33,068 nt of DNA. It comes from Deltaproteobacteria bacterium (GTDB taxonomy: Bacteria; Desulfobacterota; Binatia; UBA9968). Below are positions 10,105-31,437 of this stretch, piece after piece. The stretch spans positions 1 to 33,068 of the forward strand of contig JAJONK010000001.1 of NCBI GenBank assembly GCA_021323355.1. Direction: 5' to 3'. Position numbers and translations under genes: made by a program. How positions within the stretch are numbered: position 1 is the first letter of the stretch; each line of letters begins with the position of its first letter. Below the pieces are notes generated by a model. It was not told the origin of the DNA. It saw nothing but the letters and a program-made list of their open reading frames with translations, and made no database searches.

Positions 10105-12366
10105 TTGCATTTTAGTCTCTTAGCAAGTGCCATGGGCAAAACCTCCAAAACCCAACAGCAGATCAGCGACACGCCCACGTTGGATGAAACTAAACGGCGA
10201 AAGCGTGAAGGGCTGGCGATTCTTATCACTTCGCTGGTGGTGCTGGCGTTCGCATTCTTCGAGGTGCAGCTTCCCGATGTTTCGTCGGAATATTCTCTCA
10301 GCAATAACATTGTTTTCTTTCTCCTAATCAACATCAACATCATTCTTCTGATTCTCCTGGTTTTTCTGGTCGTCAGAAACCTGGTGAAGCTGGTGTTCGA
10401 ACGCAAACGGCGGATCCTGGGCTCACGGCTGAGAGTTCGCCTGGTGATTGCATTTGTCGGCCTGTCGCTGATTCCGACACTGTTGCTGTTCGTCATTGCC
10501 GGGGGATTCGTCACCCGCTCCTTTGAAAGATGGTTCGATATACAGGTCGAGACCGCGCTTCAGGGATCTTTGGAAATCGGCCAGACCTATTATCAAAACT
10601 CGGCAAACAACGCGCTTTTCTATGCACGGCAGCTAAGCCGGCGCGTCACTGAACAGGGGCTGTTCGAGACCGGACGGCGGAGCGATCTTAAAGAATTTAT
10701 CCAGATCAAGCAGCGTGAGTACAATCTCGGCACAGTGGAATTATTTTCACCAGATCACCTGCCGGTAGTAGTGGCTTTCAACGACCAGGTACCCACTGGA
10801 GTTAGCATCAAAGCTGAAGCCGATTTCCTTAACCGGGCGCTGCGCGGCCTGGAAGTCACCCGAACTCAGGCTTTTGGCGAGGGCGACGTTATTCGCGGCG
10901 GTGTTCCGATCTATGACAGCGGCAAGCGGATTCAGGGAGTCGTCGTAGTCGATTATTACGTGCCGAAGAGCATCACCAAACGCGCGCTTGAAATCTCCCG
11001 GTCCTATGAGCAGTACAAACACCTTGGTTTTCTGAAGAACCCGGTGAAAAACAGTTACATTCTGACCCTGCTATTAATTACCCTGGTGATTATTTTCGCC
11101 GCGACTTGGTTCGGCCTTTATCTTGCCAAAGGAATCACGATCCCGATTCAGCAGGTGGCAGCGGGGACTCACGAAGTCGCTCATGGCAACTGGGATTATC
11201 AAATTGAGGCGGCCGGCGATGACGAGTTAGGAACCTTGGTTGAGTCTTTCAACCAGATGACCCGAGACTTAAAGAAGAGCAACCTGGAATTGTTGCGCCG
11301 CGGCAAGTTCGTTGAAACACTTCTCGCTAATATTACCGCAGGAGTGATTGCTGTCGATTCAAATGGGAAGATCACTTCCTGGAACAAGGCGGCCGAACAA
11401 ATGTTAGGTGTGGATGGTTCTGCTGCTCTCGGAAAATACTACAGGGAAGCGTTTGAAACCGAGCCGCTAATGGTCATGCGCGACTTGATTGACAACCTCA
11501 AAGATCGCGAAAGCAGCGAGACTGAATTGCAGATACAGCTACCGGACCATCTCCTTACCGTATTCGCGACCGCCGCTACCCTCAGAGATGATGCTAATGA
11601 TAGCTTAGGTATTATGATTTTTCTCGAAGACATTACCCAGATTCAAAAAGTACAGAGGATGGAAGCGTGGCGCGAAGTGGCGCGGCGAATCGCTCACGAA
11701 ATCAAAAATCCGCTTACGCCGATACAGCTCTCGGCCGAGAGACTGCGCAAACGCTATGCTAAACTGTTGCAGGGGGACGGCGCGGTACTGGATAAATGCA
11801 CGACGACGATTATCCAGCAGGTGGTCGAGCTCAAGAATCTGGTGAATGAGTTTTCGCAATTCGCAAGACTACCTACGGCTCAGCCGGTGCCCAACGACCT
11901 AAACGTGATTGTTCAGGACGCGCTATTCCTGTTTAAGGAAGGACATAACCATATCGATTTTGAATTCCGGCAGGGAGAGTTGCCGGCGTTGGAGCTCGAT
12001 CGGGAGCAAATCAAACGGGTAATGATTAACTTATTAGACAACGCCGTGGCCGCCGTTGGCGATGGCGGCCATGTGCAGATAGCGACTGCCTATGATCGCA
12101 CTCGGAACACTGTCTACCTTGAAGTTGCCGACGATGGTTGCGGCATGGCGGCAGAAGCTCGAGTTAGAATATTTGAGCCTGGATTTTCCACTAAAAAACA
12201 GGGTACCGGCCTGGGGCTAACCATCGTCAATCAAATTGTCGAAGATCATCGCGGTTATATTCGGGTGCGGAACAACGAACCGCGCGGCACCAGGTTCGTG
12301 ATAGAGTTTCCGGTGCGGGAGCAGGGCGCGCTACACGAGTTTAAAAGGAAGGCTGCGCAGCTATGA
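10105..12366 (+). CDS. Membrane sensor histidine kinase with NtrY-like architecture (4 TM segments with a roughly 180 aa periplasmic loop, then HAMP, PAS, HisKA and HATPase_c)
   Basis: Hydrophobic segments lie at about aa 37-54, 68-90, 110-136 and 318-341. A HAMP domain follows TM4. A PAS-like region is present (LLANITAGVIAVDSNGKITSWNKAAEQMLG). The H-box is EVARRIAHEIKNPLTPIQLSAERL, with the His codon at 11695-11697. The N box is NLLDNAV, and the G boxes are DDGCGM and GTGLGLTIV. ATG 10132 is a plausible alternative start. Confidence 0.9.
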   Translation: MHFSLLASAMGKTSKTQQQISDTPTLDETKRRKREGLAILITSLVVLAFAFFEVQLPDVSSEYSLSNNIVFFLLININIILLILLVFLVVRNLVKLVFERKRRILGSRLRVRLVIAFVGLSLIPTLLLFVIAGGFVTRSFERWFDIQVETALQGSLEIGQTYYQNSANNALFYARQLSRRVTEQGLFETGRRSDLKEFIQIKQREYNLGTVELFSPDHLPVVVAFNDQVPTGVSIKAEADFLNRALRGLEVTRTQAFGEGDVIRGGVPIYDSGKRIQGVVVVDYYVPKSITKRALEISRSYEQYKHLGFLKNPVKNSYILTLLLITLVIIFAATWFGLYLAKGITIPIQQVAAGTHEVAHGNWDYQIEAAGDDELGTLVESFNQMTRDLKKSNLELLRRGKFVETLLANITAGVIAVDSNGKITSWNKAAEQMLGVDGSAALGKYYREAFETEPLMVMRDLIDNLKDRESSETELQIQLPDHLLTVFATAATLRDDANDSLGIMIFLEDITQIQKVQRMEAWREVARRIAHEIKNPLTPIQLSAERLRKRYAKLLQGDGAVLDKCTTTIIQQVVELKNLVNEFSQFARLPTAQPVPNDLNVIVQDALFLFKEGHNHIDFEFRQGELPALELDREQIKRVMINLLDNAVAAVGDGGHVQIATAYDRTRNTVYLEVADDGCGMAAEARVRIFEPGFSTKKQGTGLGLTIVNQIVEDHRGYIRVRNNEPRGTRFVIEFPVREQGALHEFKRKAAQL

Positions 12367-13682
12367 AAAATGGAGGGGCGGTGAAGGAGTTATCATCTCA
12401 GAAAACCATCCTTGTTGTCGATGATGAGGACAAGGTTCGGGAGTCGGTTAAAGAAGTGCTGACGGACGAGGGATATCGGGTACTCGATACCGCGGATGCC
12501 ACTTGCGTCCTGGAAATGATCGAAGCGGAGCAACCTGGGCTTGTGCTGCTCGACATCTGGATGCCGAAAATCGATGGTATTGGCTTGCTCAAGGAGATCA
12601 AGAGCAAGAAGCCTTCAACCAATGTAGTGATGATCTCCGGGCACGGCAATATCCACACGGCGGTGACTGCAACTAAATTTGGCGCTTTCGATTTTATCGA
12701 AAAGCCGGTCTCGCTCGACGGCCTGCTTCATACCGTGCAACGCGCCCTGGGCGAGCTCCCTGTACCTCAGAGCCTCTCCGAAATCGGCCAGCGCCATGGG
12801 GCCGAGGACACCGACACAGTGAGTACAGCTTTGCGGATAGTCACATCCGCCGAATCGATTCGACAAAAGACCTTAAGAAAAAGCGTGGTGAGTTCAGGTC
12901 AAGGATTGCATTCAGGTATTAAAACAGGATTGATTCTGCATCCGCTCCCGCCAAATAGCGGCATCCTATTCGAGGGTATCTCAGGTGATGTCAGCGTACC
13001 TGCGCATTTAGATTATGTCGGATCAACGGGATTCGCGACATCATTGAGCCATCGCGGTTTTACGGTTGCGACCGTAGAGCATTTTTTGGCGGTCCTCCAT
13101 AGTTACGGAATTACGAACTTGCTAGTGAAAGTTCAAGGCGAGGTTCCGATCTTGGATGGATCGGCGGCGGAGTTTTGCGAACTCATCGAGGAAGCTGGGC
13201 TGCACGAGCAAGACGAAAGCTGGTCGAGAATCGTCATTGATCGTCCTTATCGCATCGGTGACGACGGAGGAGAATGGATTAGTATTGAACCAGCGGAGAC
13301 GTTTTCGGTCCACTACGTTCTGAAGTATCCGAAACCGGTCGGCGTGCAGGAATACATATTCACACATCAGAGTCCGACTTCGTTCAAAGAAGAAATTGCG
13401 CCGGCAAGGACCTTCGGTTTTCTGCGCGATATGGAGAAGATGCAAAAGCTCGGCTTGATCAACGGAGGCAAGCTTAGTAATTGTATCTTGATCGATGATG
13501 AGAAAATCGTAAACACGGACTTGCGCTTTCCGGAGGAACTGGCGCGTCATAAAATTCTTGACATTATCGGGGATTTTTATCTGCTGGGAAGACCCATCCG
13601 CGGCAAAATCACGGCTCACATGACCGGCCATTCCGATAACATTGCATTACTTAAAGCTGTTCGAACCGGCCTGGGACTATAA
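12363..13682 (+). CDS. lpxC: Response-regulator receiver domain fused to UDP-3-O-acyl-N-acetylglucosamine deacetylase (REC::LpxC), 439 aa
   Basis: This is a single uninterrupted ORF whose ATG overlaps the kinase stop (ATGA at 12363-12366). Residues 14-129 form an NtrC/NtrX-type receiver (VVDDED, VLLDIWMP, VVMISGH, AFDFIEKP). Residues 166-439 align end-to-end with LpxC (IRQKTLRKSVVSSGQGLHSG, TVEHFLAVL, ILDGSA, RTFGFLRD, RHKILDIIGD, TGHSDN). Confidence 0.9.
   Translation: MKNGGAVKELSSQKTILVVDDEDKVRESVKEVLTDEGYRVLDTADATCVLEMIEAEQPGLVLLDIWMPKIDGIGLLKEIKSKKPSTNVVMISGHGNIHTAVTATKFGAFDFIEKPVSLDGLLHTVQRALGELPVPQSLSEIGQRHGAEDTDTVSTALRIVTSAESIRQKTLRKSVVSSGQGLHSGIKTGLILHPLPPNSGILFEGISGDVSVPAHLDYVGSTGFATSLSHRGFTVATVEHFLAVLHSYGITNLLVKVQGEVPILDGSAAEFCELIEEAGLHEQDESWSRIVIDRPYRIGDDGGEWISIEPAETFSVHYVLKYPKPVGVQEYIFTHQSPTSFKEEIAPARTFGFLRDMEKMQKLGLINGGKLSNCILIDDEKIVNTDLRFPEELARHKILDIIGDFYLLGRPIRGKITAHMTGHSDNIALLKAVRTGLGL
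12402..12749 (+). other. Receiver (REC) domain module of the fusion protein
   Basis: The acidic pair D20/D21 is present. The predicted phospho-acceptor is D64 (GAC at 12552-12554 in VLLDIWMP). S92 and K114 occupy the conserved T/S and K positions. Confidence 0.85.
12858..13679 (+). other. LpxC deacetylase module of the fusion protein
   Basis: Counterparts of E. coli LpxC E78/H79 (E239/H240, with H240 at 13080-13082), T191/F192 (T350/F351), H238/K239/D242/D246 (H396/K397/D400/D404) and H265 (H423) are all present. Confidence 0.85.
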
Positions 13683-13696
13683 CTTCTCTCGTTAAA

Positions 13697-14167
13697 GTGC
13701 CGACTGCCAAAGTGGGTATGGATTCATCTTCGCCTTATTCCAGATTGTTCACGATCAACGAAGCGAACGCCCTTTTGCCCATAGTGCGTCCGACGATCGA
13801 ACGCATTCTGGAGATCATACGGCGCCTGCGCGCCAAGAGCGAAATAGTGATTCGCGCGGAGCAGATCGACCCGGAAACGCCCAACCTGATGCGCCGTTTA
13901 CAGCAGAACGATGAGATCGCAGCCTTGATCAAGCAGATCAACGACGCTGTCAATGAGATTCAACAACATGGCTGCGTGTGCAAAGGCGTGGAACAAGGAT
14001 TGCTCGATTTTCCCTGTTTATTGGGAGAAGAGATTGTCTTTCTTTGTTGGCAATACGGCGAACCTGAGATTGCTTACTGGCACAGAATTGAGGACGGCTT
14101 TGCCGGTAGACGCCCATTGTTGGACCCCACTGTCACCGGATCGAGCGGCGGCGGTCCGCTTCACTGA
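13697..14167 (+). CDS. DUF2203 domain-containing protein
   Basis: The family pattern is present: FTINEANALLPIVRP, a helical stretch, then GLLDFPCLLGEEIVFLCWQYGEPEIAYWHRIEDGFAGRRPL. The start is either GTG 13697 or ATG 13718. Confidence 0.75.
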   Translation: MPTAKVGMDSSSPYSRLFTINEANALLPIVRPTIERILEIIRRLRAKSEIVIRAEQIDPETPNLMRRLQQNDEIAALIKQINDAVNEIQQHGCVCKGVEQGLLDFPCLLGEEIVFLCWQYGEPEIAYWHRIEDGFAGRRPLLDPTVTGSSGGGPLH

Positions 14168-15895: not shown

Positions 15896-16044
15896 GCGCT
15901 CTCACTCGTATGTTGTTTTGGAGCTTTTCTCAACGCCAGAGTTCCCGACTCGCCTTGACAATCTGAAATGAAGTATGCTTTAAGTTCTACAAATTTTCGG
16001 GCGATCATATTCGTGAATTGCGGGTAAAGGTTCGGAGGAATGAA

Positions 16045-16512
16045 ATGAAGCGAACAACTGATTTCTTGACGTTATCAACCGGCTCGCTCCTGCTCGCTGC
16101 GGGTTTAATCGCGTGTTCATCTGTTCAGGAGCAAACGGCCGCACCCGCGCAAAAACCGACACCGAGCCAGGCCCAAGCTGTCGCCGAAGCAAAGCCGCCC
16201 GCAGAGGCAAAAGCCACAAAGGGCGAAACAAAACAAACCAAATCCAAAGCTGTCGAAGTTGAGGGTGTCATCAGCAGCGTCGGCCAGCGAACGATTACCT
16301 TCCAAGTGGAGCGCAAGGGAAAGGTTCGCGAGGAGGTGGTTGGAGTCGATGACAAAACGAATATCGAAAAAGCCGGCAGCAGAGTCAAATTAAAAGATTT
16401 GCAGCAAAGCGATAAAGCCTTGATCAACTATGAACCCGAAGCCTATACTCCGGCAACCGCCATCAAGGTGACTGGACAAGGTAAATTACAGAAGGTCGGT
16501 GGCGCCGACTAG
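16045..16512 (+). CDS. Hypothetical lipoprotein with an Ala/Pro/Lys-rich linker and a small C-terminal beta-rich domain
   Basis: The start is trimmed to ATG 16045, which is preceded by GGAGGA at 16034-16039. The signal peptide plus lipobox reads MKRTTDFLTLSTGSLLLAAGLIAC. A low-complexity linker follows (AAPAQKPTPSQAQAVAEAKPPAEAKATKGETKQTKSK). I recognise no family with confidence. Confidence 0.6.
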   Translation: MKRTTDFLTLSTGSLLLAAGLIACSSVQEQTAAPAQKPTPSQAQAVAEAKPPAEAKATKGETKQTKSKAVEVEGVISSVGQRTITFQVERKGKVREEVVGVDDKTNIEKAGSRVKLKDLQQSDKALINYEPEAYTPATAIKVTGQGKLQKVGGAD

Positions 16513-30813: not shown

Positions 30814-31437
30814 TTGAAAAATACTCTGCGGCAAACTATGGAACAGGCCAGTGCGTTAACCACCCTCGGTTACCTTTGTGCCGCTCTGTTAATAGCTGGC
30901 TGCGGCTATTCATTTGCCGGACGAAGCGAGGCTTTTCCGAACGACATTCGGACGGTTTACATTGAACCGTTCATCAATCAAACGCGCAATGTCGGTCTGG
31001 AGAAAGAACTAACCTCGGCGCTGCGTAGCGAATTTTACCGGCGCGGGCAACTCCGTGTGGTTGATACGCTTGATCAAGCCGACGGGATTGTTGCGGGAGT
31101 CGTGCGCTCGTTTGACAGCCATGTCGCTTCGGTTAACCGCTACGACGAAGTGCTTCAGTATGAAACGGCCATGGTTGTCGATGCATCGCTGCGTCGTCGA
31201 GAGCCAAATGAAATTATCTGGCGAACCCAAGGCACGCGCCTGACGGATATCTCTGGCGGCTCCCGGGCCGCGGTAGTGACCAGCTCCTCGGAATTCAAAA
31301 CCAGGACGTTGGACGCGTCGGACGTTCGTCGGCTGACTGATATCCAATTGACCGAGACAGAAAACCGCGCGGTGCGGGGACAGCTAGTCGAGCGTTTTGC
31401 GCGAGAGCTGCATCAAAGATTGATGGAGATGTTCTAA
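30814..31437 (+). CDS. lptE: LPS-assembly lipoprotein LptE-like
   Basis: A signal peptide and lipobox (LLIAGCGYSFAG) are present. The length of about 200 aa and the pattern after the Cys (CGY.F.G...P....TVYIEPF.N.T) fit the LptE/RlpB family. The gene sits in the conserved position immediately after leuS. The start is TTG 30814 or ATG 30838. Confidence 0.7.
   Translation: MKNTLRQTMEQASALTTLGYLCAALLIAGCGYSFAGRSEAFPNDIRTVYIEPFINQTRNVGLEKELTSALRSEFYRRGQLRVVDTLDQADGIVAGVVRSFDSHVASVNRYDEVLQYETAMVVDASLRRREPNEIIWRTQGTRLTDISGGSRAAVVTSSSEFKTRTLDASDVRRLTDIQLTETENRAVRGQLVERFARELHQRLMEMF

Follow-up and report, generated by a model that had tools for sequence, protein, structure and literature searches.

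How flux is set through the deacetylase LpxC, whose step commits Gram-negative bacteria to lipid A production, is a central question in outer-membrane biogenesis, and the known answers differ by lineage. Binding of MurA reportedly controls the enzyme in Pseudomonas aeruginosa, as Hummels et al. are said to have found in 2023. The LpxC of Escherichia coli is controlled by FtsH/LapB/YejM proteolysis, and broad transcriptional regulons set LpxC in alphaproteobacteria (PMC12444477). A connection of NtrYX with lpxC and the cell envelope is known from Rhodobacter sphaeroides and Caulobacter, in both cases at the transcriptional level (PMC7240162, PMC12444477). In Desulfovibrio vulgaris, lpxC is the only target of the response regulator DVU2934, again by transcriptional control, and the lpxC of Syntrophobacter fumaroxidans adjoins the orthologous regulator operon (PMC3333781). 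Here we describe a gene from a 33,068-nucleotide stretch of a Deltaproteobacteria bacterium of the Binatia (contig JAJONK010000001.1; the whole stretch is referred to as the window) in which a receiver (REC) domain and LpxC form one protein, encoded directly downstream of an NtrY-like sensor histidine kinase. Judged by sequence comparison, this REC::LpxC protein is a reduced member of a multi-phylum family of NtrX-like::LpxC fusions with dedicated NtrY-like kinases.

The kinase and the fusion comprise the following features (aa, amino acids; nt, nucleotides).

10105..12366, forward strand: NtrY-like sensor histidine kinase, 753 aa (Pfam NtrY_N as the membrane/periplasmic region, HAMP, PAS, HisKA and HATPase_c)
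12345-12352, forward strand: Shine-Dalgarno-like motif AAGGAAGG, 10 nt before the fusion ATG
12363..13682, forward strand: REC::LpxC coding sequence, one open reading frame (ORF), 439 aa plus stop
12408..12737, forward strand: REC domain, aa 16-125 (Pfam PF00072 Response_reg, E = 1e-30)
12552-12554, forward strand: codon of the phospho-acceptor D64, from the translation
12747..12857, forward strand: inter-domain linker, aa ~129-165, ~36 aa, predicted to be disordered
12858..13679, forward strand: LpxC domain, aa 166-439 (PF03331 and TIGR00325)
13080-13082, 13548-13550 and 13560-13562, forward strand: zinc ligands H240, H396 and D400, from the alignment with E. coli LpxC
13629-13631, forward strand: H423 of the LpxC domain, in which the general base E239 and T350, K397 and D404 are also present

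The product is identical to the NCBI protein MCE3239505.1, which is annotated as plain LpxC. PF03331 matched residues 168-433 over model positions 1-266 of 268 (E = 4e-83), and the NCBIfam equivalog model for lpxC (TIGR00325) scored 254.3 bits against a cut-off of 187.25, which places the protein within LpxC. A BLASTP comparison with the LpxC of E. coli K-12 (taken from NC_000913) gave 38% identity (E = 3e-59), with E78/H79 of the E. coli enzyme corresponding to E239/H240 of the fusion, T191/F192 to T350/F351, H238/K239 to H396/K397, D242 to D400, D246 to D404, H265 to H423 and H19 to H183. Residue I166 of the fusion aligned to I2 of E. coli LpxC; hence the module begins at its normal N-terminus. 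At the other end, the alignment finished at residue 275 of 305 and the reading frame of the fusion stops six residues further on, so that the C-terminal tail, which is the FtsH degron in E. coli, is absent from the fusion.

The receiver half contains D20, D21, the phospho-acceptor D64, S92, K114 and the aromatic switch residue F111, as read from the translation. Among solved structures, this half comes closest to the receiver of Brucella NtrX (5m7n; residues 15-166 of the query against 5-157 of the chain), and NtrX was also the best NCBIfam match for the receiver (NF051870), at 132 bits and thus far under the cut-off of 600 bits. Pfam found neither an AAA+ domain nor a helix-turn-helix (HTH) in the window protein, which sets it outside the NtrX/NtrC-type sigma54 activators. 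The listed residues of both halves were invariant in 50 intact orthologues of the same short REC-linker-LpxC form and were also kept in 15-16 longer relatives described below (D20, D21, D64, S92, F111 and K114 in the receiver), and the catalytic core of LpxC showed no variation across all 111 fusion proteins of a wider set. The sequences thereby support complete catalytic and phospho-acceptor sets in the two halves.

An AlphaFold2 model of the fusion, built from 94 family sequences, had a mean predicted local distance difference test score (pLDDT) of 83 and a predicted template modelling score (pTM) of 0.83, with both domains mostly above 90 (~90-96 for the REC domain) and values of ~30 across linker residues 136-162. 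The LpxC half superposed on solved LpxC structures in Foldseek with template modelling scores of 0.78-0.88, normalised by target length. The whole-chain pTM of 0.83 hints at a defined packing of receiver and LpxC in the model. Within the LpxC domain, only the loop of residues 365-373 (13455-13481, approximately E. coli 206-214), which contains K370, has a pLDDT below 50.

The TGA stop of the kinase gene (12364-12366) overlaps the ATG of the fusion in the sequence ATGA at 12363-12366, and the two genes are probably translationally coupled. On this arrangement the NtrY-like kinase is presumed to be the cognate kinase of the fused receiver. Of the 50 intact short forms, 44 have a kinase homologue directly upstream of the fusion in the tblastn synteny analysis, as do all long forms; this adjacency spans Binatia, Thermodesulfobacteriota and Nitrospinota.

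Orthologues were collected in a genome scan with one genome per GTDB species, of which the best 80 loci were kept. Approximately 60 of these contained the short gene at 50-97% identity, and in 50 it was intact; they derive from independent genome assemblies, mostly metagenome-assembled genomes (MAGs) labelled Ca. Binatia or 'Deltaproteobacteria'. Nei-Gojobori dN/dS ratios (omega) were calculated for close pairs only, since pairs with dN above 0.3 gave saturated ratios. Between the window and its two closest usable relatives, omega was 0.000 for REC, 0.037 for LpxC and 0.30-0.38 for the linker (L003), and 0.028, 0.034 and 0.36-0.45, respectively (L002). For the whole gene it amounted to 0.04-0.075, as compared with 0.05-0.08 for RuvB, 0.05-0.12 for PlsX and 0.046-0.054 for the kinase. 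Both halves are under purifying selection as strong as that on neighbouring housekeeping genes. The linker keeps a constant length of ~30-37 aa in Binatia with a variable sequence: its mean top-residue frequency is ~0.3 versus 0.78-0.79 in the domains, and orthologues differ in its net charge, from -4 to +9. A single reading frame is maintained in every intact orthologue from short-read assemblies; hence it is one polypeptide that is under selection.

Frame disruptions were present in the fusion gene of four loci, all from 'MFD' assemblies (L006, L017, L031 and L061). L006 also gives shortened matches for the neighbouring genes ruvC and queG. We read the four as assembly indel errors, not as pseudogenes. 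Five further loci with the short fusion bear other taxonomic labels (L032, L039, L041, L047 and L079: Verrucomicrobiia, Ca. Udaeobacter, Mycobacterium, Myxococcales and Chloroflexota), and L032, L039 and L079 also have the typical Binatia gene order; mis-binned contigs or wrong labels are the likely explanation.

The nearest relatives of the LpxC half were themselves fusions, of 690-770 aa, in which Pfam recognised Response_reg, Sigma54_activat, AAA_lid_14 and LpxC on the extended frames. These long forms come from Thermodesulfobacteriota MAGs (L060, L063-L073) and Nitrospinota MAGs (L076, L078, L080 and L081). The loci from L060 to L081 had appeared as stand-alone LpxC because their tblastn matches covered residues 163-439 only, and this assignment was rejected when the frames were found to extend to 690-770 aa with REC and AAA+. 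The AAA+ part of the long forms retains Walker A (e.g. GESGTGKE); the GAFTGA loop is missing and the DE of Walker B is replaced by DS or AS. The first 450 aa of the Thermodesulfobacteriota forms could be aligned over their whole length with full-length NtrX (5m7n, chain 6-454) and NtrC4 (4l4u), so that these proteins contain a counterpart of the DNA-binding domain, although the 59-aa segment before LpxC gave no significant Pfam match to an HTH. The Nitrospinota forms are without the HTH-equivalent segment. Among 1.84 billion cluster representatives searched, short forms of 412-461 aa made up about 20 clusters, with identities as low as ~35%, and long forms about 18; true stand-alone LpxCs appeared only at or below 47% identity. 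Further searches retrieved hundreds of short and long forms from metagenomes, named 'LpxC' or 'NtrX' by annotation pipelines.

In a tree of LpxC domains, all 111 fusions grouped in a single clade with 115 tips, which excluded 59 of the 63 stand-alone enzymes; the tree is a Kimura-corrected neighbour-joining reconstruction without bootstrap and with an outgroup sample biased to relatives of the query, and its topology is indicative only. Two apparently stand-alone LpxCs inside the fusion clade (P0167, 292 aa, and P0161, 289 aa) carry RRMD and ERMD at E. coli positions 143, 211, 262 and 267, the positions of the family signature discussed below, and may have arisen by secondary fission or through truncated gene calls. 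These sequences are most simply explained if an NtrX-like regulator was joined to LpxC once and its descendants lost first the HTH and later the AAA+ domain, the window protein being the most reduced form of the family.

Beyond the catalytic core, the fusions differ from stand-alone LpxCs at four positions in or near the substrate pocket, and at four further positions.

13272-13274, 13470-13472, 13620-13622 and 13635-13637, forward strand: E304, K370, M420 and D425, family-derived positions (E. coli 143, 211, 262 and 267)
12927-12929, 13104-13106, 13128-13130 and 13176-13178, forward strand: G189, Y248, K256 and C272, fusion-specific positions

The position of E. coli S211 is S or T in 52 of 59 stand-alone enzymes and R or K in 102 of 111 fusions (K370 in the window); that of L267 is hydrophobic in 51 of 59 stand-alone enzymes and D or E in 93 of 111 fusions (D425). 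At K262, K or R in 47 of 59 stand-alone enzymes is set against M in 70 of 111 fusions (M420), and at K143, K or R in 41 of 59 against E in the short forms (E304). The derived residues at 211, 262 and 267 are common to short and long forms, position 143 being the exception. K143 and K262 belong to what we take to be the basic patch that binds the diphosphate of uridine diphosphate (UDP) in E. coli LpxC, and the window protein lacks both. The basic residue gained at position 211 might make up for their loss, or the gating of substrate binding might have changed; the four derived positions may also form a contact surface for the receiver. On sequence grounds the differences appear compatible with catalysis, and that the fusion has the same substrate and the same kinetics is something we infer. 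The second set of residues, G189, Y248, K256 and C272, is at least 94% conserved in fusions and rare in stand-alone LpxCs; K256 stands where the latter are mostly acidic, and C272 where they are mostly aliphatic.

The original prediction, made from the letters of the window, had described both halves as functional. It had placed the receiver residues D20/D21, D64, S92 and K114, a counterpart for each catalytic and zinc-binding residue, the LpxC module at its normal N-terminus and a linker of roughly 36 aa, and each of these was recovered by the translation, the E. coli comparison and the domain boundaries; PF00072 and PF03331 both matched, and the listed residues were conserved across the orthologues. 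Its proposal of purifying selection on one polypeptide agrees with the omega values (REC 0.00-0.03, LpxC 0.03-0.04) and with the frame kept in intact orthologues, and the dN/dS analysis it had called for indicated strong constraint on both domains and 0.30-0.45 for the linker. The statement that both halves look functional is supported at the level of sequence: the catalytic and phospho-acceptor sets are full, and the counterparts of K143 and K262 are replaced.

We consider it reasonably probable that the upstream kinase phosphorylates D64 and thereby switches the tethered LpxC. The NtrY-like membrane kinase would sense an envelope or redox signal and transfer phosphate to the receiver at D64; the phosphorylated receiver would alter its contact with the linker-tethered LpxC, or its dimerisation, and deacetylase activity would be turned up or down, setting lipopolysaccharide (LPS) flux without transcription or proteolysis. 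The proposed logic would be that of CheB, an N-terminal receiver and a flexible linker before a C-terminal enzyme governed by phosphorylation of the receiver. Since the linker is flexible and unconserved, a CheB-like tether-and-dock mechanism or dimerisation is favoured over a rigid relay. Whether the fusion is the sole LpxC of uncultured Binatia and of some uncultured Thermodesulfobacteriota and Nitrospinota, acting as an NtrY/NtrX-type output, with the long and short forms recording a stepwise change from DNA-binding regulator to phospho-switched enzyme, we regard as evenly balanced.

Several points weigh against a phospho-switched LpxC. With K143 and K262 replaced and positions 211 and 267 derived, substrate binding may differ from that of canonical LpxC. 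The disordered and poorly conserved linker argues against rigid allosteric coupling. Phosphotransfer, its effect on activity and the direction of that effect, and the role of the protein as the working LpxC of the cell are matters that we infer from sequence, and the genome may contain another, stand-alone lpxC. Finally, tblastn of the loci found no kinase near six short forms (L048-L052 and L058), which may be orphan regulators or products of independent AAA+ losses. These proteins are of ~470 aa and have a longer linker that opens with an NtrC-like heptad segment, LEHRRLVRENRELRSRI. Upstream ORFs on the forward strand of L050 were considered as a kinase and rejected, as they had no Pfam matches and are probably spurious in high-GC sequence.

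That possible second gene leads to the best surviving alternative, in which a stand-alone LpxC serves the cell and the fusion is an accessory paralogue, a conditional extra deacetylase under the kinase signal, possibly with altered substrate preference. The derived residues of the substrate region (E for K143, M for K262, R/K for S211 and D/E for L267) and the low-confidence modelling of loop 365-373 would suit such an enzyme, and the evidence comes from loci rather than whole genomes. LpxC is normally a single-copy gene, however, which we count against a paralogue, and the fusion occupies the same housekeeping locus in some 45 recovered Binatia-type loci, scores above the NCBIfam equivalog cut-off and has an omega as low as those of RuvB and PlsX; moreover, no isolate occurs twice among the best 80 matches of the genome scan. 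We therefore judge an accessory role unlikely.

Still less probable, in our view, is a receiver that works independently of phosphorylation, as a structural, dimerisation or localisation module or as a point of attachment to which a protease or adaptor would dock, with LpxC constitutive or controlled by turnover. Atypical receivers occur in other families, the linker is unconserved and E. coli LpxC is itself controlled by proteolysis (PMC12444477), all of which would be in keeping with such a module. Against it, the phosphorylation residues are invariant in 50 short forms and in the 15-16 long forms, the omega of REC is 0.00-0.03, and a complete HisKA/HATPase_c kinase is conserved directly upstream.

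That translation from an internal start additionally yields free LpxC is very improbable. The original prediction had excluded any internal start codon or ribosome-binding site; on this point it was mistaken, for the linker contains a candidate.

12819..12821, forward strand: possible internal start GTG (V153), with GAGGA at 12804-12808 and an in-frame TTG at codon 157

The GAGGA lies 10 nt upstream of the GTG, a spacing equal to that at the annotated start. The GTG153 site is common only to the window and its closest relative L003, however, and is thus unconserved; 47 of 50 orthologues have an in-frame ATG, GTG or TTG within the linker, but a Shine-Dalgarno-like linker start occurs in only 8 of the 50, at differing positions, and three orthologues have no in-frame linker start at all. 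An artefactual joining of two adjacent genes through missequencing or loss of a stop codon, for which the origin of the contig from a metagenome-assembled genome and the frame disruptions in the four related loci could speak, was rejected, since the same continuous frame recurs in the 50 intact short forms from independent assemblies and in hundreds of metagenome proteins, and the disrupted copies all stem from 'MFD' assemblies, which indicates indel errors there and not in the window.

The surroundings of the kinase and the REC::LpxC gene form a conserved Binatia block, yebC-ruvCAB-kinase-fusion-DUF2203-queG, and the remaining genes of the window are housekeeping ones, arranged as follows.

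Upstream of the kinase, in order: aconitase, rlpA-like, yebC, ruvC, ruvA, ruvB
Downstream of the fusion, in order: DUF2203, queG, thioesterase, htrA-like, yceD, plsX, fabD, fabG, rpiB
After rpiB, in order: glyA, nrdR, ribD, ribE, ribBA, ribH, nusB, leuS, lptE
13697..14167, forward strand: DUF2203 gene (Pfam PF09969, E = 2e-36), 14 nt past the fusion stop
30814..31437, forward strand: LptE, LPS-assembly lipoprotein, after leuS (Pfam PF04390, E = 5e-13)

The DUF2203 gene probably belongs to the same operon as the fusion; in Binatia loci it keeps its position after the fusion and before queG, and it is absent beside the long forms. The placement of lptE after leuS is presumably the one also found in E. 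coli. The presence of LptE implies that the organism makes and exports LPS and hence needs LpxC activity. An ORF of 164 aa without a Pfam match (16018-16512) has a homologue at the same place in many Binatia loci, flanked by the thioesterase and htrA-like genes.

Full-text literature searches found no description of a REC-LpxC or NtrX-LpxC fusion, nor of direct phospho-switching of LpxC, and a 2025 review of lipid A regulation leaves fusions unmentioned. Response regulators with enzymatic output and LpxC are both already known; it is their combination, with a dedicated kinase, a spread over several phyla and intermediate architectures, that we did not find described. The known controls of LpxC by proteolysis and by MurA binding do not act by phosphorylation. 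If the proposed switch is true, LpxC would be controlled directly and post-translationally by a kinase of its own that acts on a built-in receiver, which would be a new solution for this enzyme, and LpxC would join the list of enzymatic outputs of response regulators. The family also preserves intermediate architectures, from the full NtrX-like::LpxC through a form without the HTH-equivalent to one without AAA+. An in vitro test is easy because one soluble protein with and without a phosphodonor suffices.

Compared with the canonical LpxC of E. coli, P. aeruginosa and Aquifex aeolicus, the fusion has the same fold, zinc ligands, acid/base pair and other catalytic residues; in contrast to it, the fusion carries an N-terminal receiver and a linker, has no C-terminal FtsH degron tail and belongs to a family with derived residues at E. 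coli positions 143, 262, 211 and 267. The one other LpxC fusion recognised by NCBIfam is the bifunctional LpxC-FabZ (NF009667), whose partner is a C-terminal metabolic enzyme; the window protein reached 205 bits with this model against a cut-off of 465, over the LpxC part only, and has no FabZ. A regulatory relative is NtrY/NtrX: the window kinase has the NtrY architecture, the receiver best matches NtrX and the long forms align to full-length NtrX. NtrX, however, is a DNA-binding regulator of many genes whose effect on lpxC is transcriptional and indirect, whereas in the fusion LpxC itself would be the output and the AAA+ and DNA-binding parts are gone. DVU2934 likewise provides a dedicated two-component input to the LpxC step in a 'deltaproteobacterial' lineage, a likeness of function; unlike the fusion, that system consists of separate proteins and acts by transcriptional control. 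The arrangement in S. fumaroxidans would be a plausible pre-fusion state. A parallel in design is CheB, in which a hydrolytic enzyme follows an N-terminal receiver and a flexible linker as in the fusion, although the catalytic domain of this methylesterase is unrelated to LpxC and serves chemotaxis and not envelope synthesis, so that the likeness is a functional analogy only.

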